Source of the DNA: a virus
Taxonomy: Duplodnaviria > Caudoviricetes
IMG/VR virus record: IMGVR_UViG_3300044850_000073
Coordinates: 1 to 62,010 of that record
Direction: 5' to 3' (one strand)
DNA length: 62,010 nucleotides
A model generated the notes under the pieces. It was not told where the DNA came from. It saw nothing but the letters and a program-made list of their open reading frames with translations, and ran no database searches. The position numbers and the translations under genes were made by a program. Each line of letters starts with the position of its first letter. The stretch's first letter is position 1. This document shows, in pieces, positions 29,457-57,660 of this stretch.

Positions 29457-29911
29457 TCATTCCCGATCTCGATAGCGTCACTATCATCATCTTCATCGCC
29501 AACAATATAAGTTAGCCCAGGGATGCTTTCAACGATATTTTTTATATAGCCGTGAATTTTATCTTCATCCCAGTTACAATTATCATATAATTGTTGGCTG
29601 AGTTCTGTCAATGTAGCGGTGTGGTAGTTGGTCCATTTCTTCTTAGAAAGAGCATCCTCTTTGATTTTAGAAACGGCCATTAATATTTCAAGTTCAGTTG
29701 ACAGGTATTCTTGTGACATCACCAGCTCAGCATGTTCTACTCTACTGCGATCGATTAACCATAAAATTGCTTTAAAAATATATGTCAAAAATAATAACAA
29801 TCGATTGCCTATCTCAACCTGAACAGTTAGGCACAAGTTAATCAACCATTGAATGGAACTAAGCACTAGGTCCATTACGGTGCCAGTCAGGTTGTATACG
29901 GCAGTTTTCAT
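29453..29911 (-). CDS. Hypothetical protein
   Basis: ATGA-coupled to helicase. Confidence 0.65.
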   Translation of the reverse strand: MKTAVYNLTGTVMDLVLSSIQWLINLCLTVQVEIGNRLLLFLTYIFKAILWLIDRSRVEHAELVMSQEYLSTELEILMAVSKIKEDALSKKKWTNYHTATLTELSQQLYDNCNWDEDKIHGYIKNIVESIPGLTYIVGDEDDDSDAIEIGND

Positions 29912-31680
29912 GTTCTGAAGCGCGAGCTTTTGACTACATCTATATTCTGCATTGTATCATCATTCTTCAGGCTTTGGGTCTGGTAGTCCAGTTGTATTTT
30001 TGACATCTGCACTTCCCCTTTTACAGCAACCAATCTTTCATCTGGATGTTTGCCTTCCCAGAATTGCTGACCGTTTCTTACGGCGCTATGCCAGACCTCT
30101 AGCTTCCTTTCTGTTGGTTCTCCATCGACTGGCTTATGTTTCCTAATTATCCATACAGCATGTGAGACATGAGCCAAGGCGTCCGTACCTCTGATCTGAT
30201 CAAGTTCTGGTTCTTTTGGAACTGATTTCATGTTATTCTGCTCGATTTTCAGTCCAACTTGGTTCATTTGAGCAAAAACAAATATATCTATATCCAGCTC
30301 CTTTGCGGCAGTTATCAATTTATATGCTCGCTCTTCAAGCATAGAAGGATTATCGCGTGGCGCATTTTTATGCCTTGCCAAGGCATGGAAGTGATCAAGA
30401 ATCACGCATCTAAGTTCTGGATTTTTAGCTTTCATCGAACGCATTGAATTAACGACAGTGTCAACGCAAGCGCCCCATGGAGCTTCAATTAGCAACTTGC
30501 CATTCGTTTCTTGTAAATGAAACGCCAAAGTTCCCATTAGATTCATCAAACAATCTTTATCTTCTTCTGCTGGGTTTTCTAGCTCGCTTACTGTAACATA
30601 GCCAATCTTATCTTCCGTAGCTCTCCAGTGATAACCTTGACGTGACAGCAACTTGCGACTCAGGCTAGCCATTAGTCTGGCCTCAATTGAAGCATAGTCA
30701 AGTTCCACTGATATAAAGCCAACCGTCAACCCCTTGGATGATAGCGATGATGCAATCTCACATCCGATAGACGTTTTACCAACTTTCGTCCTGGCTGCAA
30801 TTGTCATCAGACGGCCGCCAAAAAGCCTATGGGGCTCAGGAAAATTAACACCACCGCCAATATCTAAATCAAAAGCTGGGATACCGGTAGAGGCAGGGCG
30901 TCGCTGCTTTGTTTTTGAATTAAACCTGTCAATCCAGTTTTGCCTATTGCCTCCAGGGTTTCCTATGATCGACTCCACAAGAGTGACGGCCTGCCCTTGA
31001 TTGCCTATACTGCCACGCATCATTCCAACGCCTTCCATAGCCCGCTGCTGTATGTATTCAAGAGCTTCCTCAAGCTTGATATCGGCTTTAATATTTTGCT
31101 TTGCGTTATGAAGCGTCTCTATATATAAGGCCCTTACCCGTACTTGCTTTAATACGTCGAGAGCTGTCTGCCATTCGGTTTTTGCGTCGCCGTAACAGTT
31201 GAGCAGCTCTGGGTCCGCCAATTCATTAATAGTTTGGTTGAAAGTAATAATTGGTATGATTCTGGAAGAATTGCTTAGATTTGAATAGCCGGCAATCAGC
31301 GATTCCATGGAAAGGATTTGACCGCTTCTGTCTCCTATAAATGTCAAATCAATCTCTTTTGCAATCGCTTTAAATCTGTCGTCTGACCACAAGCTGAGTG
31401 GGATTAGCTGACCATGACCTATGCCAAAACCTGTCCTGAGTTCACCCCATAATTCACGGGCTATTCCAGGAGGGCATGAAAGCACTTTACTTAATATAAT
31501 AGCTTCTTGGTTAGTTGTATCTTCTCGGTCTTGCACGGATGTCGGCTGTAATTTATCTACAATGCGAGCTACCTCAACAGCTTTATCAATGAACGTTGAA
31601 TTACATCCAATTATCTTACCTTCTTCTTGGTGCAATAGACCAAGGTCAACTGCTTTTTGTAAGTAGAATGGTAATTCCAT
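29908..31680 (-). CDS. dnaB: DnaB-like (SF4) replicative helicase; start probably 31680 or 31698
   Basis: STGIPAFD; Walker A AARTKVGKT; FISVEL; Walker B VILDH; AQMN. Confidence 0.85.
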   Translation of the reverse strand: MELPFYLQKAVDLGLLHQEEGKIIGCNSTFIDKAVEVARIVDKLQPTSVQDREDTTNQEAIILSKVLSCPPGIARELWGELRTGFGIGHGQLIPLSLWSDDRFKAIAKEIDLTFIGDRSGQILSMESLIAGYSNLSNSSRIIPIITFNQTINELADPELLNCYGDAKTEWQTALDVLKQVRVRALYIETLHNAKQNIKADIKLEEALEYIQQRAMEGVGMMRGSIGNQGQAVTLVESIIGNPGGNRQNWIDRFNSKTKQRRPASTGIPAFDLDIGGGVNFPEPHRLFGGRLMTIAARTKVGKTSIGCEIASSLSSKGLTVGFISVELDYASIEARLMASLSRKLLSRQGYHWRATEDKIGYVTVSELENPAEEDKDCLMNLMGTLAFHLQETNGKLLIEAPWGACVDTVVNSMRSMKAKNPELRCVILDHFHALARHKNAPRDNPSMLEERAYKLITAAKELDIDIFVFAQMNQVGLKIEQNNMKSVPKEPELDQIRGTDALAHVSHAVWIIRKHKPVDGEPTERKLEVWHSAVRNGQQFWEGKHPDERLVAVKGEVQMSKIQLDYQTQSLKNDDTMQNIDVVKSSRFRT

Positions 31681-31681
31681 A

Positions 31682-32695
31682 TCACTTCTCGTCGTCATAG
31701 CGCCAGAACTGTTCTCTAGGTTCCCTTGGTTCTGGGACATCGCTCGGCCAGGAAGGCAGTCTAAACATCAGTCTGAATCTAGCCGGATCCAGGCCCTCTT
31801 CCCGGAATGCTTGTTCTATCTTAAGAATTCTAGGCGTCAGTATGTCTATATTATCAGGATCATCTCTAAGCAGATTACAATACATCATATGGAGTTCATC
31901 ATAATCATCGATCAATCTTCTGTGCTTTGCCTTAAGAACCAACTCATCCTTTCTGTCTTGTTCCAAAACAGCCTCTGCTTTGTCGTAATTCAAGCCATCG
32001 TTATATAGCGTATAAACGTTTTGATATTTCTTGCTTTGAGGTGATCCAATTCCAACGATACTTTGCAAGGTCTTTGATGAATTGTCTTTTGACCAAAAAG
32101 TGGAGTGCTCGATGCCGTTTTTCAGGACAGAGAAGAAATCTGCATAAGCATGTGGCTTTAACTTTAAAGCCATGATATGAGCGTCGATTGATCTAAGAAG
32201 CTGAGAACTTAGTCGATTTATTTTGCTATAATTTGCTGGCCTGAAAGAATTCCAAGCATCAGTAGCCTGCTGGAAATAGTCATTCTCCTTTGGCTTTAGC
32301 TCTTGCTTGCTTGACTTGTCTGTTCTAATATCAGTTTCTTGTTCAGCATTAGCCTTATCTAATAAATTCTTTATTTCCGCCCTAGCGTTATAGCTTACGT
32401 CTATCATTCTTCTGAGCACAGGTATCGGATCAACCAAGACTATTTTATCTTCTGTTCCTTCAATAAGTCCGTATTCTTTCAATTCTTTAATACATCTTAT
32501 TCTGGTTGATCTATGTATTCCTATCATTTTATCTAGGACTGATTTGTCAATCGGGCCAAATCTTACTTGATTAGCTAATACAATCCATAGCAATTTGCTA
32601 TTGGGGTGGAGATCTTCGCAGAGCAGAAGTTCTAGTGGAGCCTTAGCAAACGTATGTATATCCCAGCTTGACTTCTTTGAGACGGAGACCTTCAT
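31682..32695 (-). CDS. Putative replication initiator (N-terminal winged HTH)
   Basis: LHPNSKLLWIVL..MIGIHRSTRIRCIKELKEYGLI; upstream of helicase; next to iteron array. Confidence 0.7.
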   Translation of the reverse strand: MKVSVSKKSSWDIHTFAKAPLELLLCEDLHPNSKLLWIVLANQVRFGPIDKSVLDKMIGIHRSTRIRCIKELKEYGLIEGTEDKIVLVDPIPVLRRMIDVSYNARAEIKNLLDKANAEQETDIRTDKSSKQELKPKENDYFQQATDAWNSFRPANYSKINRLSSQLLRSIDAHIMALKLKPHAYADFFSVLKNGIEHSTFWSKDNSSKTLQSIVGIGSPQSKKYQNVYTLYNDGLNYDKAEAVLEQDRKDELVLKAKHRRLIDDYDELHMMYCNLLRDDPDNIDILTPRILKIEQAFREEGLDPARFRLMFRLPSWPSDVPEPREPREQFWRYDDEK

Positions 32696-33079: not shown

Positions 33080-33496
33080 ATGGAGAAAAAGCGCCCAAGG
33101 CTGACGCTCGAACAGAAGGAGCTGATCGAGTCCACCTATCAGGAGATAGGTGAATCAATCGCGGCCAACATTGTCAATGGAAATAAAACAATTAAATGGG
33201 CATGGGATCTAATAGGTTCCATAGGAATATATGAGCAGTGGATGATAGAACGTTGGATTACGAAGTATAAATTTGAAAAACGTGGCTATGTTTACAATAT
33301 GAAGAATTCAAAAAGAAAAAGGGGTCCTCGAAGCAACCCTAATGGCCTGATCAAAAGAAAGCAGGACATCGTAGAAGCTTTAAAAATTATGAAGCTCGGC
33401 TTGGATCCGTTAGAATACCTTCAGCAAAAGAACAACCCCAAAACCGATGGCAGAAGTACCCAACCTGGCAGGAGTAGCGACCAAGGATCTGGTTGA
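33080..33496 (+). CDS. Hypothetical basic protein
   Basis: 138 aa; first gene of rightward unit. Confidence 0.6.
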   Translation: MEKKRPRLTLEQKELIESTYQEIGESIAANIVNGNKTIKWAWDLIGSIGIYEQWMIERWITKYKFEKRGYVYNMKNSKRKRGPRSNPNGLIKRKQDIVEALKIMKLGLDPLEYLQQKNNPKTDGRSTQPGRSSDQGSG

Positions 33497-34163
33497 GACT
33501 ATTGGTACTGGCAGTTTCAAGGCCAGCTATATCAATTGGGCTCGCACAATGAATCTGCTGCATGAACATGCGCCTGGGTGGTCTCCTGAATTACTTCCGA
33601 CTCATGATGGCAATTGGGTACATGCTGCACCGGGCTCTGGAGGATTTTTAATGATCCGATTTGTGCATACAGATGGCTCCGTTAGGCCTGCTTATCCACA
33701 AAGCATCATGGATCACAGGAATAATGCTATTCCACTTGATAAGATTACTGCTCGCGATGTTACAGACACCCATCGCCGGGGAGCCTGCATGGCGGCTGCA
33801 ATGGAATTTAGCTTAGGCTATGAACTCTGGGCGAAAATGCCTCTAGAGAGTGGCTACTCTACCGAGGACCAGGCAAATGAAGGGGTTAGCAAGGCAGTCG
33901 CTACGGAGCCTACCCCAAGCGGCTTCCAGGCCCGTGAACAGCCTACTCAGCAGGATTTTCTGGAAGCTTGCTTGAGCAAGGGTCTAACTACCATGGCAGC
34001 CGATAACCTGCTTGAATTGGTGGCTGGTAATTTTGCTGGTGGGCTGAAGACTTTGTCCAGCAAGACGGCAGAGTGGGTTGCCGAGCAGAATGCAAAGGCT
34101 GAACCTAAAGCCTCTCGGGGTGCAAAAAAGTCGTCGAGCAAGCCTGCTCCAGAGGATTATTAA
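33447..34163 (+). CDS. Single-strand annealing recombinase (Sak3 / DUF1071-like)
   Basis: ASYINWA..IMDHRNNAI..ITARDVTDTHRR..AM..LG.ELW pattern; near SSB and exonuclease. Confidence 0.75.
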   Translation: MAEVPNLAGVATKDLVETIGTGSFKASYINWARTMNLLHEHAPGWSPELLPTHDGNWVHAAPGSGGFLMIRFVHTDGSVRPAYPQSIMDHRNNAIPLDKITARDVTDTHRRGACMAAAMEFSLGYELWAKMPLESGYSTEDQANEGVSKAVATEPTPSGFQAREQPTQQDFLEACLSKGLTTMAADNLLELVAGNFAGGLKTLSSKTAEWVAEQNAKAEPKASRGAKKSSSKPAPEDY

Positions 34164-34276
34164 GTGAATACCCTGTGTTAGCGGAACCTGAATTAGGCGT
34201 ACCTCAATTTTCGATTGACTGGGCTGCTAATCAGCTCGCATCTGAATTTGACGGCGTAGTCATAAAAGATTATTAA
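34130..34276 (+). CDS. -1 frame extension of the recombinase (48 codons; not in ORF track)
   Basis: A AAA AAG at 34124-34130; frame open to TAA 34274-34276; terminator follows. Confidence 0.6.
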   Translation, partial: VVEQACSRGLLSEYPVLAEPELGVPQFSIDWAANQLASEFDGVVIKDY

Positions 34277-34301
34277 GACCCAGTCCATGGGTCTTTTTTT
34301 T
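34275..34301 (+). terminator. Intrinsic terminator
   Basis: aagaccca-gtcca-tgggtctt plus T tract. Confidence 0.85.
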
Positions 34302-34332
34302 GCTATGCTTATTGCGAGTCCCAATTCGCTCC

Positions 34333-35148
34333 ATGACGGCAGTTAAAGACGGTATAACGACTTGGTATAACTATGCTGGTCGGTACCGTGTTTTGGATCA
34401 ATACGAATTTGATGTATTGATCAAGCAAATGAAGCAGCATGAGCCAGGAACAAAGGAATATACAGATATTCTAAATAAGCTGACGATGCATAACTTAAAA
34501 TTAGTCATCAAGTTTGTTTCTAACTTTGTTAGAGCAAATGTTCAAAACAAGATGGGTACTATGGATATGCTTGACTATCTTCAGGTCGGGACTATCGGTT
34601 TGCGTCGCGCCATTGAATGCTATGATCCTGCAAAAGGTTACAAGTTTTCCACCTATGCAGTACCCTGGATAAGGTCTCTTGTCTCAAGGTATAACTTAAA
34701 AGTTTCTAGTGTTTTTCACATTACTGAAAACGCTCTTCTTGATGCATGGCAATACAAGACTTACGGTGAGATCAGAAGCAAATCTTCAAAAAATAAAACG
34801 GCCGAAGAATGCGTCGATCTGGTAAAAAGGATACAGGCGATGCAAAACCCGATAAGTGTGGATGCCGATGTTTGCGGACCCGGCGAAACAGAAGGCACAG
34901 AGCTGGTCAAACGCCTTGAAAGTCACTACAAGATGTATGACAGCAGTCTGGATTTCAATATGGAAATGGAAGACCTGGTAAACTCTGCTGGTCTCACTAA
35001 AATGCAGATAAAAATTATTAAAGCGTCATTTATCCAAGAGTTGACGACGCATCAGATAAAAGAACTGTATGGCATTAGCGTGCCCGAGATTAAGAGATCA
35101 AAACAAAAAGCCTTGGCTAAGCTCAAAGACGCTCTTAGTCAGTTATAA
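34333..35148 (+). CDS. RNA polymerase sigma-70 family factor (RpoD-like)
   Basis: HNLKLV..DYLQVGTIGLRRAIECYDPAKGYKFSTYAVPWIR; region 4 KQKALAKLK. Confidence 0.92.
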   Translation: MTAVKDGITTWYNYAGRYRVLDQYEFDVLIKQMKQHEPGTKEYTDILNKLTMHNLKLVIKFVSNFVRANVQNKMGTMDMLDYLQVGTIGLRRAIECYDPAKGYKFSTYAVPWIRSLVSRYNLKVSSVFHITENALLDAWQYKTYGEIRSKSSKNKTAEECVDLVKRIQAMQNPISVDADVCGPGETEGTELVKRLESHYKMYDSSLDFNMEMEDLVNSAGLTKMQIKIIKASFIQELTTHQIKELYGISVPEIKRSKQKALAKLKDALSQL

Positions 35149-35175: not shown

Positions 35176-35535
35176 ATGGCTGCTATCTCTATTGCTGGAA
35201 CCGTCACCGGCCGCTCCGGCGAACCTCCTGTTACTCTTAAAACATTTCAAGGCAAAGATGGTACTCAGACCGTCGCAAGCTTTAGTGTTGCCGACCTTGA
35301 GTATATCTTTACCAAAAAAGACGAAGAACGCCAAGGTCAATTCTATAACTGCGAAGTCCGAGGCAAATCGGCAGAGTTATGCGCTGAACGCATTCAGCGT
35401 GGCGATAAGATTGCTGTAACCGGGCAACTTGTACAGCGAATGTATAACGAAAAGATGTATATTACTATTAAAAACGCCTCTGTCACTTACCTTGAAAAGC
35501 GAAAAGATGTTGGTGAAGCAGAAATGCCTTTCTGA
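35176..35535 (+). CDS. ssb: Single-stranded DNA-binding protein
   Basis: OB fold (VASFSVA, GKSAE, GDKIAVTGQL); C-terminal EMPF. Confidence 0.92.
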   Translation: MAAISIAGTVTGRSGEPPVTLKTFQGKDGTQTVASFSVADLEYIFTKKDEERQGQFYNCEVRGKSAELCAERIQRGDKIAVTGQLVQRMYNEKMYITIKNASVTYLEKRKDVGEAEMPF

Positions 35536-36988: not shown

Positions 36989-37828
36989 ATGGTACAGATT
37001 GCTTATCGTCAGCCTGATGCAGAATATAGGCGCGAGCTTGGCGAAAACCAAAGTTATTTAAAAAATATTCTCATCAGCCCGGCTCATTATAAAGCAGCAA
37101 AGACAAGAAGGTTTCCTGTTACTGTCAACATGGAAATTGGATCTGCCTTGCATTGCAGAGTCCTGGAAGGGAAAGAAGAGTTTGAATCAAGGTTTCTATT
37201 AAAACCTGATGGAGTAGCTTTTAATACGAAAGAAGGTAAGGAATGGAAACTGGCAAACAAAGGCAAGACAATACTTGCTAAAAGTGATTATGATAATGTC
37301 TTAGGGATGGCCGATTCGCTATTTGCGATGGACTGGTTTAATCCTGACCAGAATGATTACAGAAAATACAACGAATTATCTGTTTATTGGGATGTTGATG
37401 GTATCCCGTGCAAAGGCAGGCTTGACAGGCTTGTGGACATGGGAGACCACCTTCTTGTTCTTGATCTAAAGACGACAGACTCAGTTGAATATTCAACTTT
37501 CCTTAAAAAAGTGACCGGAGGGCTGAATTATGTGTTTCAAGCAGCTTGGTACGCAGAGGCGGCAAGCGTTGCATTTGATAAGCCGGCAAAGTTTATTTTC
37601 ATAGGTATAGAAAGAAGTGAGCCATGGGCCACAGGGATCTTTGAGGTATCAACCGAAATGATGGCCGAGGGCGTAGCACAGATAAATAAAGCCCGGAAAC
37701 TGTTAAAAAAATGTTTGAGCACCAAGCAGTGGCCAAAGCCTGAGGTAGAATATAGTGTCATGAATCTTCCGCCATGGTACAAGTCTATGGCTGATCAGTA
37801 TCTCGAAGTTGACGAGGTTTTATTTTAA
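36989..37828 (+). CDS. RecE / exonuclease VIII-like PD-(D/E)XK nuclease
   Basis: SPAHY..GSALHC.VLE..CKGRLD..DLKTT..QAAWY. Confidence 0.88.
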   Translation: MVQIAYRQPDAEYRRELGENQSYLKNILISPAHYKAAKTRRFPVTVNMEIGSALHCRVLEGKEEFESRFLLKPDGVAFNTKEGKEWKLANKGKTILAKSDYDNVLGMADSLFAMDWFNPDQNDYRKYNELSVYWDVDGIPCKGRLDRLVDMGDHLLVLDLKTTDSVEYSTFLKKVTGGLNYVFQAAWYAEAASVAFDKPAKFIFIGIERSEPWATGIFEVSTEMMAEGVAQINKARKLLKKCLSTKQWPKPEVEYSVMNLPPWYKSMADQYLEVDEVLF

Positions 37829-39657: not shown

Positions 39658-41177
39658 TGGCGACAAGAGTCGGTAAAAATTTTCTGGAACGAGCCGGCTC
39701 TGACAGGGAAATGGTGCGTGCGCTTAGGCGCATTAAGACGCAAAAGAAAGAAGACGGCCAACAAGTAATACTGCATCAGTTTATCAGAAAAGTTGCCCCA
39801 AATTATAAGTTTTATAAAGTTCATGCGGAATTAACAAAGCAGCTACAAAGAGTAATTGATGGGAAATGTAAAAGATTGATCATACAAGTACCTCCTCGCA
39901 GTGGAAAGTCTTATATCTCATCAAAGCTGCTGCCCGCTGCTTATTTGATGGCACATCCTGATCGCTATGTAGGAATTGTCTCCTATAGCGCCGAGCTGGC
40001 TGAAGGCTTTTCAAGGTCAGCTCGTGAGTACTACCAACAAGCAGGGGGGATAATGGATCCTGTAAAGAAAGCCGTTAACGATTGGGGTACGCAGGGCGGC
40101 GGCGGATTATGGGCGGCGGGTGTCGGTGGCGCCATAACCGGTCGATCTGGTCATCTTTTGATCGTAGATGACCCGGTCAAGAATAGGGAAGACGCTGACA
40201 GTCCAAGAGTCATGGAAAAACTTTGGGACTGGTATACGTCGACTTTGTACACAAGACTTGAGCCAAATGTAGGATCAATTGTCGTCATCCAGACGAGGTG
40301 GAGCGAAAATGATCTTATTGGACGATTAATTGAATCTGAGATGAACGTCTCGGAAAAAGGCAGAGAAAATTGGACCATACTGGATCTTCCTGCAATTTCT
40401 GAAGATCCAAATTCCAGGCCGCCATTGCCAGCGCATTGTGAAGTAGTTCCTGACTGGAGAGAAGAACCAGGATTGGCTTTATGTCCGCAAAGATATGGCA
40501 TCGAAGAATATGAGCGTATTCGCGAAGCAATTGGCACACGAGATTTTGCTGCATTATTTCAACAAAGACCAGCTCCGGAAGGTGGCAATATGTTTGATCC
40601 GAGCTGGTGGCAGTATTATGATGCTGCTACTGTTCTTCCTGAATTCCAGCGTGTAATGCTAAGTGTAGACTGTACATTTACCAATGCAGGGACAAGCGAT
40701 TATGTAGTTGGTACTGTGATTGGCCAATCTGGTGTTAACTATTACGTCCTAGATATGGCTAGAGAGCGTCTCGATATCATGGGGACAATTGCAATGATAT
40801 CTAGGATGCACAATAGGCACGCTTTAAGCGGAACAATTATTGAATTAGCGGCTTCGGGCTATGCCGCTTACCAGATGTTAAGCAAAAAGATACCTGGACT
40901 AATTGGATTTAAACCAGAGAAATCAAAAGTAGCAAGAGCAGCCGGTATTGTCCCAGTCGTTGAAGCTGGCAATGTATTTATACCGGCAAGTGCAAGCTGG
41001 CTTGATATATTCATAAATGAGTTCAGCCTGTTTCCGGCCGCCAAAAACGATGATATCATTGATTCTGTATCCATGGCTATCAATTACATGTCTCAGAGGT
41101 CTGCTCCTGCGTTAACTGAAGTCATGTGGGGGCGTGGCATCACGCTGCCTGATTCTTACCGTTTACGTACTGACTAA
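39657..41177 (+). CDS. terL: Terminase large subunit
   Basis: Walker A PPRSGKS; Walker B LIVDDP; QTRW; nuclease SVD...NDDIID. Confidence 0.95.
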   Translation: MATRVGKNFLERAGSDREMVRALRRIKTQKKEDGQQVILHQFIRKVAPNYKFYKVHAELTKQLQRVIDGKCKRLIIQVPPRSGKSYISSKLLPAAYLMAHPDRYVGIVSYSAELAEGFSRSAREYYQQAGGIMDPVKKAVNDWGTQGGGGLWAAGVGGAITGRSGHLLIVDDPVKNREDADSPRVMEKLWDWYTSTLYTRLEPNVGSIVVIQTRWSENDLIGRLIESEMNVSEKGRENWTILDLPAISEDPNSRPPLPAHCEVVPDWREEPGLALCPQRYGIEEYERIREAIGTRDFAALFQQRPAPEGGNMFDPSWWQYYDAATVLPEFQRVMLSVDCTFTNAGTSDYVVGTVIGQSGVNYYVLDMARERLDIMGTIAMISRMHNRHALSGTIIELAASGYAAYQMLSKKIPGLIGFKPEKSKVARAAGIVPVVEAGNVFIPASASWLDIFINEFSLFPAAKNDDIIDSVSMAINYMSQRSAPALTEVMWGRGITLPDSYRLRTD

Positions 41178-41178
41178 A

Positions 41179-41808
41179 ATGGCCAGAAAGTCTCTTGATT
41201 TCAAGTTGTCTCCTGAGCAGCAAAAAATGGCCATGGAAAATATTAATTTAGCCAGGCGAGAGGCGTGGCGAATTCAAAGAACAACTGGCATAGAATATTC
41301 CGTCTTAGAAGGTGCAGCATTCCTTGGCTTGTGCAAAGCTTGTAATCGCTATGATCCAAGCTCCGGATATAAATTTTCTAGCTTAGCTACGCCAACTATA
41401 AGAGGTGAATTACTGCATTGGGTAAGAGATAGGACTTACGCAATGCGTTTATCGCATAAAATGAGAGAAAATTGGATTAAAGGACGCCGATTAATGTATG
41501 ATGGCTCCACTGACATCCAGATAGCTAAAGCCTTGGGTCTTTCTCTTGGCGATTGGCAGGAAGTGAGATCGGCCTGTTCGGGCCCACCACTTGAGTTAAA
41601 AGATCAAGCCATGCCTTCGGCTCCGTTAGAGCCAGAGGAGTTTGATTTTAAAAATGACTACAGAGATAAAGCGACTGAGATTATCGAAGCGATATCCGAG
41701 AAAGAGCGAGACATCTTGATGAATTATTACAAAGGTGACGTATCAAAGGCGCCCGTAAGACAGTTTAACTTAACATTAAGCTTTCTCAAATTTAAAGAAA
41801 TCCTTTAA
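41179..41808 (+). CDS. Group 3 (SigF/SigB-like) sigma factor
   Basis: GLCKACNRYDPSSGYKFSSLATPTIRGELLHWVRD; region 3 IAKALGLS. Confidence 0.9.
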   Translation: MARKSLDFKLSPEQQKMAMENINLARREAWRIQRTTGIEYSVLEGAAFLGLCKACNRYDPSSGYKFSSLATPTIRGELLHWVRDRTYAMRLSHKMRENWIKGRRLMYDGSTDIQIAKALGLSLGDWQEVRSACSGPPLELKDQAMPSAPLEPEEFDFKNDYRDKATEIIEAISEKERDILMNYYKGDVSKAPVRQFNLTLSFLKFKEIL

Positions 41809-57594: not shown

Positions 57595-57660
57595 GGCATC
57601 TTACCGTATCGAACGGTATCTCATGGCTATGTGCCATGCGTGTTCCTTACACCAAGATGC
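57595..57660 (-). ncRNA. Miniaturised tRNA-like RNA (66 nt)
   Basis: GCATCTT/AAGATGC; CATGG-CACATAG-CCATG; ACCG-TTCGATA-CGGT; no U33. Confidence 0.6.

Follow-up and report, generated by a model that had tools for sequence, protein, structure and literature searches.

Does the annealase gene of a tailed phage encode a single protein, or one protein body with two alternative C-termini? The question is raised by the 3' end of a gene in the virus record IMGVR_UViG_3300044850_000073, a stand-alone record of 62,010 bases (77% complete) whose whole length is referred to here as the window. The gene product resembles the Sak and Rad52 single-strand annealing proteins, its reading frame (the 0 frame) carries the heptamer A AAA AAG shortly before the stop codon, and the -1 frame continues beyond this stop codon up to a hairpin that resembles a transcription terminator. 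From the comparison of this locus with its relatives we conclude that a programmed -1 ribosomal frameshift probably operates near the 3' end of this Sak/Rad52-type annealase gene, and that two isoforms, of 238 and ~276 amino acids (aa), are very likely. The features on which the argument is built are the following.

33447 to 34163, + strand: annealase gene in the 0 frame, encoding the short Sak/Rad52-like isoform of 238 aa, from the list of open reading frames (ORFs).
34124 to 34130, + strand: slippery heptamer A AAA AAG, the proposed site of the -1 shift, within the 0-frame codons 226 to 228, GCA AAA AAG (34122 to 34130), in the X XXY YYZ register.
34130 to 34276, + strand: -1-frame extension of 48 codons and a TAA stop codon (34274 to 34276).
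34131 to 34163, + strand: putative dual-coding overlap, which in the 0 frame holds the last 10 residues and the stop codon of the short isoform; the extension's first 11 residues would be read from it in the -1 frame.
34136 to 34149, + strand: hairpin of 5 base pairs with a loop of 4 nucleotides (nt), 5 nt 3' of the heptamer, whose importance is not supported.
34169 to 34180, + strand: [FY]PxL tail element (YPVL in the window, with GTG 34175 inside it), from the alignment of tails.
34205 to 34273, + strand: conserved tail core, a predicted amphipathic helix (tail residues 15 to 28) followed by F-x-G and a hydrophobic stretch ending in DY, from the tail alignment and AlphaFold2 (AF2).
34275 to 34303, + strand: hairpin (34275 to 34295) and T run resembling an intrinsic terminator, which begins at the second stop codon.

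The -1 frame is closed by a TAA at 34106-34108 and is open from 34109 to 34273; the annealase stops in the 0 frame at 34161-34163, and codons 1-228 followed by the 48 codons of the -1 frame give the ~276 aa of the long isoform. An earlier reading of this DNA that used only its letters (the sequence-only reading) had described the in-frame GCA AAA AAG, the ending of the 0 frame, the 48-codon peptide in the -1 frame and a terminator directly after the second stop codon, and all of these are confirmed. It had also pointed to a hairpin 5 nt downstream of the heptamer and a GGGG just upstream of it; both are present at those places (the GGGG at 34117-34120, i.e. 3 nt upstream of the heptamer), and their role is a separate matter. 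No terminator-like hairpin lies between the first and the second stop codon of the annealase locus, and the placement of the terminator 3' of the second stop, not of the first, counts in favour of the -1 extension. In the relatives as well, a hairpin-like GC-rich stretch follows the stop codon of the tail and is followed in turn by a sigma-factor gene. Given the protein sequence and the codon usage of the gene itself, the chance of finding a heptamer in this stretch of the window is P ~0.08.

The relatives were compared in a census of 188 related loci and the window's own region (189 in all; the recA region of Escherichia coli, L189, was fetched besides). Of the 189, 63 were removed, either as identical copies across the 300 nt around the stop codon or because the gene or the downstream 160 nt ran off the end; this left 126 distinct 3' ends, in which a tail was called when it matched the tail profile with E < 1e-3. 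A tail of ~40 aa was found at or directly after the annealase stop codon in 56 of the 126 distinct loci, of which 25, the window among them, have it in the -1 frame and 31 in the +1 frame; the profile search found it before the stop codon in the annealase's own frame in none of the 126. The profile E values range from 1e-7 to 1e-15 in 24 of the 25 -1 loci (8e-13 in the window), with 9e-4 in L145. In the tail frame, the pairwise differences at the first, second and third codon positions are 0.415, 0.362 and 0.638, and this excess at the third position is the pattern expected of translated sequence. The -1 tails share a common layout, in which the [FY]PxL element, located just past the first stop codon in 22 of the 25, is followed by ~12 variable residues and by a core in which A, F and G are invariant and which mostly ends in DYEGPV. 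AF2, run on the tail alignment, predicts that the first half of the core (residues 15-28) is helical, with a predicted local distance difference test (pLDDT) score of ~94 for residues 21-30. The tail is restricted to annealases with a four-helix C-terminal domain, which is present in 56/56 loci with a tail; among the 43 loci without this domain there is no tail. Another 27 loci have the C-terminal domain and no significant tail, the best weak match being in the +1 frame for 20 of them; these 27 were kept in the class without a tail, which makes the counts conservative.

The end of the 0 frame is conserved too: the final residue is Tyr or Trp in 120/120 listed homologues, mostly as EY, DY or QW. 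The stretch after the heptamer would therefore be dual-coding, and both C-terminal ends appear to be under selection. Coding conservation of the -1 frame among homologues had been proposed by the sequence-only reading as a check of its idea, and the tail turned out to be conserved as a protein. No meaning could be supported for its remark that both forms end in DY: in most relatives the tail extends beyond DY (e.g. DYEGPV), and the shared DY is incidental.

These results bear on the possibility that the break in frame comes from a lesion or an assembly error, or is what remains of a longer gene in decay, so that only one protein, of full length, would be made or the tail would be dead. The contigs of three sequencing runs (X1 and X2, which possibly correspond to the source sample, and X5, from another study and of low depth) have identical letters and no indel across the heptamer and the first stop codon, over the parts covered (34102-34252 for X5), and the frame arrangement in the window is not an assembly error. 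Considering also that both frames are conserved past the site, as seen in the final Tyr or Trp and in the coding pattern of the tail, and that the same out-of-frame layout recurs in 56 distinct loci, we regard a lesion as exceedingly improbable.

The decisive comparative signal for a -1 frameshift is the association between the heptamer and the -1 tail. An in-frame X XXY YYZ heptamer is present inside the overlap that is open in the -1 frame in 25/25 distinct -1 loci, 9-60 nt before the stop codon. The 27 occurrences, which comprise C CCA AAG (13), A AAA AAG (11), C CCT TTT (2) and G GGA AAG (1), represent 11 configurations of type and position; the -1 loci that have no heptamer at one position carry one at another, and in several loci the -1 frame opens just 1-4 nt before the heptamer. 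As a null model, the protein sequence was fixed and synonymous codons were redrawn from each gene's own usage; the per-locus P ranges from 0.06 to 0.44, and a heptamer would be expected in 4.5 of the 25 loci, against the 25 observed. The site is thus conserved among the homologues beyond what the protein sequence requires, and the search for the heptamer in homologues, which had also been suggested beforehand, came out in favour of the proposal. In the last 60 nt of the gene, a heptamer occurs in 0/31 +1 loci and in 3/70 other loci (3/101 together), and the association of heptamer and -1 tail gives a Fisher P = 2e-23 that is uncorrected for relatedness and partly confounded by composition. As a separate observation, run X1 contains a second related phage from the same sample that diverges from the window at 34105 and carries GCC CCA AAG, the C CCA AAG form of the site.

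The nature of these heptamers also bears on where slippage would take place. A long isoform could be produced by transcriptional slippage, if the RNA polymerase added an A in the A6 run, and the site of the window does present six consecutive A, a run that is short for productive transcriptional slippage. This route is used by the dnaX gene of Thermus, as described in a passage of PMC5009743; nevertheless, C CCA AAG, G GGA AAG and C CCT TTT account for 16 of the 27 heptamers, and their runs are no longer than 3-4 bases. Because most sites are devoid of a long homopolymer run, the slippage would be ribosomal and not transcriptional, and we consider the transcriptional route very improbable.

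The sequence-only reading had called the site dnaX-style, and this description stands only in part. The heptamer A AAA AAG is identical to that of E. coli dnaX, where, as in the proposed scheme, two products (tau and gamma) are obtained from one gene of DNA metabolism. In dnaX the shift ends the protein early, whereas in the annealase it would lengthen it; furthermore, dnaX has its own Shine-Dalgarno (SD)-like element, which lies roughly 10 nt upstream, and a strong stem-loop, neither of which has a supported counterpart in the annealase gene, and no sequence relation between the two was found. The 77-nt fold has a z of -0.61 relative to shuffled sequences and the 55 nt downstream a z of 0.01, so that the hairpin does not exceed chance. 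Across 17 heptamer contexts of the relatives no conserved structure was found after the heptamer (only two have a z below -1.9), nor was a conserved SD-like element found upstream of it in these relatives, from which the GGGG is absent; in Rfam, no family matched the site at E <= 1. A dnaX-type cassette was consequently rejected, given that the GGGG is 3 nt upstream and is not conserved, that the stem is no stabler than shuffled sequences, and that the shift extends the product. A 3' stimulatory structure is not obligatory for low-level shifts. According to a passage of PMC5009743, the heptamer itself, A AAA AAG, which is that of dnaX, shifts more readily than any other tested in E. coli.

The tail could instead be a separate small gene, translated from its own start codon (GTG 34175) or by termination-reinitiation at the annealase stop codon, and the product would be a free micro-protein of 33-45 aa. 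GTG 34175 is the sole candidate start codon for the tail in the window, but no SD-like sequence precedes it and it is unique to the window: it encodes the V of YPVL, and R, D or Q is found at this position in 19 of the 21 other loci with the element. From the opening of the frame to the core, no ATG, GTG or TTG exists in 11 of the 25 -1 tail frames, and none exists at or before the element in 12 of the 22 tails with [FY]PxL, in which the conserved element is thus upstream of every start codon. A separate gene would also leave unexplained the slippery heptamers present in the annealase frame in 25/25 loci, as well as the +1 tails that begin at the stop codon and have 18-34 aa. On the other hand, in four -1 loci whose short form ends in QW there is a GTG 4 nt before the stop codon, which makes re-initiation conceivable, and gene callers called short ORFs over such tails; when the tail profile was compared with 1.84 billion representative proteins, six of the 8 matches were ORFs of this kind, of 25-76 aa, and the other two were unrelated repeat proteins. 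An in-frame joining of the tail to the annealase was never seen, which also suits a separate gene. Overall, independent translation of the tail seems unlikely and a separate gene improbable. The sequence-only reading had named an independent start at GTG 34175, or a -1 frame that is not conserved, as grounds on which it would fall; the GTG is not conserved as a start codon and has no SD-like sequence, the tail is conserved, and neither ground was borne out. Its central claim, two C-termini of the annealase through a -1 frameshift at A AAA AAG, is supported by the frames, the conservation of the tail, the heptamers in 25/25 loci and the missing start codons.

The GTG codons of the four QW loci and the ORFs called over the tails count at the same time against a -1 frameshift, and there are further points on this side. 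No natural protein with annealase and tail joined in one frame came up among the listed homologues, by profile in 1.84 billion proteins or by a word search of longer proteins. The synthesis of the long protein and its ratio to the short one are inferred from the sequence. The 25 -1 loci are related and do not represent independent trials, the 11 configurations being the better count; moreover, Lys- and Pro-rich ends favour such heptamers, something for which the resampling null allows and the Fisher test does not. With no supported stimulatory structure or SD-like element, the efficiency of the shift may be low. Finally, passages of PMC5009743 state that the shiftiness of A AAG depends on the tRNA-Lys set of the host and that about half of the bacteria have a single tRNA-Lys. 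The host of this phage, judged by its relatives, is probably a picocyanobacterium. Concerning the tRNAs of the phage itself, ARAGORN predicted five tRNA genes between 56162 and 57879 of the window (Leu-taa, Met-cat twice, Arg-tct and Phe-gaa) and no tRNA-Lys; one of the Met calls, 57595-57660, is just 66 nt long.

If the -1 frameshift operates as proposed, most ribosomes would reach the stop codon at 34161-34163 and would synthesize the 238-aa protein with its conserved acidic-aromatic tip, whereas a fraction of them would slip back one base on A AAA AAG (34124-34130). The slipped ribosomes would lose the last 10 residues together with the tip, and would gain the 48 residues of the -1 frame, with the [FY]PxL element and the helix-F-x-G-hydrophobic motif; translation of the long form would end at 34274-34276, immediately before the terminator. 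By analogy with the lambda proteins G/GT and with the C-termini of annealases, which dock partners, the tail may be a docking peptide through which a minority of the subunits of a ring would bind a partner different from that of the short form. A helical peptide in a disordered context, as predicted here, has the usual look of a docking motif.

What is the protein that would carry these two ends? In the AF2 model of the annealase, obtained with 31 homologues in the alignment and with a mean pLDDT of 79.8, the following regions are distinguished.

Residues 1 to 130: Rad52-like core, modelled with confidence.
Residues 131 to 161: disordered linker.
Residues 168 to 218: four-helix C-terminal domain, modelled with confidence.
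Residues 219 to 238: disordered Lys/Pro-rich end that finishes in the acidic-aromatic tip.

The heptamer sits in the disordered segment of this model, beyond the last helix. In sequence searches, the annealase matched the Pfam family PF06378 (SSAP_Sak) with an E of 2.5e-4 and 21 bits, slightly below the cut-off of 22.3 bits; among the PHROGs, it matched PHROG 21418, a specific family without an assigned function, with an E of 1e-66, and the Sak-like phrog_659 weakly (E 0.0016). The top Foldseek matches of the model were Sak of phage 80alpha (8qe9, 8pq8) and human RAD52, with E values from 1e-5 to 1e-3 and a probability of 1.00. By fold and by profile, the model and these matches place the annealase in the Rad52/Sak family of single-strand annealing proteins. 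Residues 1-130 have the fold that is present in Sak of phages 80alpha and ul36 and in the N-terminal domain of human RAD52, and, besides its weak Pfam and PHROG matches to Sak, the gene is located in a module with a RecE-like exonuclease and a single-strand DNA-binding protein (SSB). Only this S-CBS2/S-CRES-like lineage, in contrast with Sak and RAD52, has the four-helix C-terminal domain and the two tails. The closest cultured relatives are the Synechococcus siphoviruses S-CRES1-3 and S-CBS2, with 46-56% identity. Upstream, an ORF of 138 aa without a family match (33080-33496 of the window) overlaps the start of the annealase gene by 50 nt (33447-33496).

The 31 loci with a +1 tail raise the question of whether the same extension is reached by other routes. 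In 29 of them the stop codon of the short form is TGA, whereas TAA, TGA and TAG are mixed among the -1 loci. The conserved first Asp/Glu of the +1 tail uses the GA of this stop codon (giving ATT GAT from TAT TGA T, and GGT GAT from TGG TGA T), and the tail thus starts on the stop codon itself; counted from there, it has 18-34 aa only. An in-frame TTT followed by C, just past the opening of the +1 frame and within the last 18-30 nt of the annealase gene, was found in the following 19 of the 31 loci.

TTT C loci: L006, L011-L013, L050, L052, L056-L057, L060, L062, L073-L074, L080, L165, L167-L168, L173-L175.

In 13 of these 19 loci the sequence is AAA TTT C, even though 10 of those 13 genes use AAG more often than AAA for Lys. 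TTT C is a candidate site for a +1 slip, in which tRNA-Phe would move from UUU to UUC. In the remaining 12 of the 31 loci, mostly GC-rich and with a long open +1 frame, no candidate site was identified. In L124 (1936-1992) a tail-like motif (profile E 0.016) follows straight after the TGA stop codon in the annealase's own frame, and this could be a case of stop-codon readthrough, as a third route, or an indel. In S-CRES2, S-CRES3 and S-CBS2 (L106-L108) there is a shorter, weakly scoring +1 tail in the ~105-130 nt without annotation that separate the recombinase from the sigma-factor gene; the recombinase of S-CRES2 is annotated as two coding sequences (gp7 and gp8).

A broader reading, which we advance tentatively and find plausible without holding it to be probable, is that this family keeps two alternative C-termini as a stoichiometric device similar to G/GT, and that the recoding routes by which sister lineages arrive at the same helical tail differ. 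Under this joint reading the routes would be a -1 slip on X XXA AAG (25 loci), a +1 shift near or at the stop codon (31 loci) and possibly readthrough of TGA (L124). A few long subunits per Rad52-type ring might then exchange the tip for a helix that recruits another partner, e.g. a nuclease, SSB, a helicase or the RecA of the host.

Does any other protein carry the motif of the tail? No second copy of the motif is present elsewhere in the six-frame translation of the window, and the motif was found on no other protein, either among the 1.84 billion representative proteins or, by a word-based search, among longer proteins. Pfam and PHROGs searches with the tail gave nothing, a tblastn search of 50,697 phage records gave one chance match only (E 6), and a scan of genome contigs gave one locus without a tail. 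The sequence-only reading had been reminded by the tail of the C-terminal motif of cyanobacterial DnaX, which would link the protein to the replisome of the host, and this resemblance could not be substantiated. There was no long protein among the profile matches in the 1.84 billion proteins and none was obtained by the search of longer proteins; in Pfam, 14 tails had no match at E <= 10, PF12362 included. The nearest named cluster in the Atlas was that of PF12362 (DUF3646), with a score of 0.80 that is within reach of shuffled sequences, i.e. at chance level. The link to DnaX was rejected on these grounds; a motif of 13 aa could escape all the DnaX searches that were made.

RecA was another candidate that was rejected. 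The tail core bears what we took to be a resemblance to the N-terminal helix-strand polymerisation motif of RecA, and the comparison gave it no support. When the tail alignment was compared with residues 1-60 of E. coli RecA, hhalign chose that register, but with an E of 0.46 and a probability of 0.1%, and against the whole of RecA it chose a different match of 7 aa, with an E of 0.38. A sequence search of the PDB with the tail profile gave two chance matches only. The predicted complex of the tail with RECA_SYNPW had a score of 0.00 in two runs without controls, and counts neither way.

Programmed frameshifts in tailed phages are textbook knowledge for the tail chaperones, and for some capsid and tail decorations. 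In IS3-family insertion sequences (e.g. IS911), a -1 shift on heptamers of the A AAA AAG type joins a downstream -1 frame to the upstream ORF, giving OrfAB besides OrfA, as would occur in the annealase gene; in IS3, however, the downstream frame encodes a whole catalytic domain and the stimulatory RNA structures are complex, whereas here a short peptide is added and no structure is supported. The C-terminal domain of Red-beta binds lambda Exo and the SSB of the host and is, as proposed here, an annealase C-terminus that serves as a dock for partners; the difference is that recoding would provide two alternative C-termini in the present case. A parallel in layout is found in the G/GT proteins of lambda and the shifts of other tail-assembly chaperones, where a heptamer close to the 3' end of the phage gene allows a low-level -1 shift that lengthens the protein. 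The lineages of the annealase would reach the same extension by -1 or +1 shifts, and related G/GT lineages likewise use shifts in other directions. In contrast to lambda G/GT, which is a chaperone of virion assembly, the annealase is a recombination protein, its extension has ~40 aa only, and its short form ends in its own conserved tip, which is lost in the long form. In lambda, according to passages of PMC5009743, the low-level -1 shift near the 3' end sets the ratio of two products, which share the N-terminal body and differ in a partner-binding domain added by the -1 frame; the annealase tail would have the equivalent binding role.

The sequence-only reading knew of no frameshifted phage annealase, and the full-text literature searched, which leaves subscription journals outside its coverage, likewise gave no frameshifted annealase or recombination protein, nor any report of a frameshift in Sak. 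In the searched text of the review Atkins 2016 the words recombinase and Rad52 do not appear, and the word annealing appears once, in another sense; passages of PMC4759559 deal with a +1 shift in a tail protein. The mechanism is thus of a known kind, recoding in the style of lambda G/GT, and what is new, as far as we have seen, is the family of genes concerned, along with the recourse to both -1 and +1 shifts for one and the same tail.

The annealase gene is part of a recombination and replication module, with genes for a DnaD-like loader, a DnaB-like helicase, a sigma factor, SSB, a RecE-like PD-(D/E)XK exonuclease, ThyX, a primase and a class II ribonucleotide reductase. The gene of the sigma-70 family (34300-35148) comes after the tail and the terminator, in the window and in the inspected relatives, and is followed by the SSB gene, whose product ends in an acidic ...MPF tip. 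The DnaB-like helicase is encoded at 29908-31740 of the window, the SSB at 35176-35535 and the RecE-like exonuclease at 36989-37828. A second sigma-like ORF is located in the window at 41134-41808.

If the long isoform is real, the annotation misses a conserved protein end in a widespread lineage of freshwater and estuarine cyanophage-like viruses; the tail is unannotated in S-CBS2 and S-CRES2/3. The two ends would mark two docking functions open to mapping and possibly of use in transferring recombineering systems from one host to another. With -1 and +1 shifts, and perhaps readthrough, employed for one tail, the family would also be a natural test set for the evolution of recoding sites, and the same family would test the shiftiness of A AAG in cyanobacteria. 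Should the more tentative reading of two C-termini as a stoichiometric device be true, the assembly of the annealase ring would be coupled to the replication or repair machinery.

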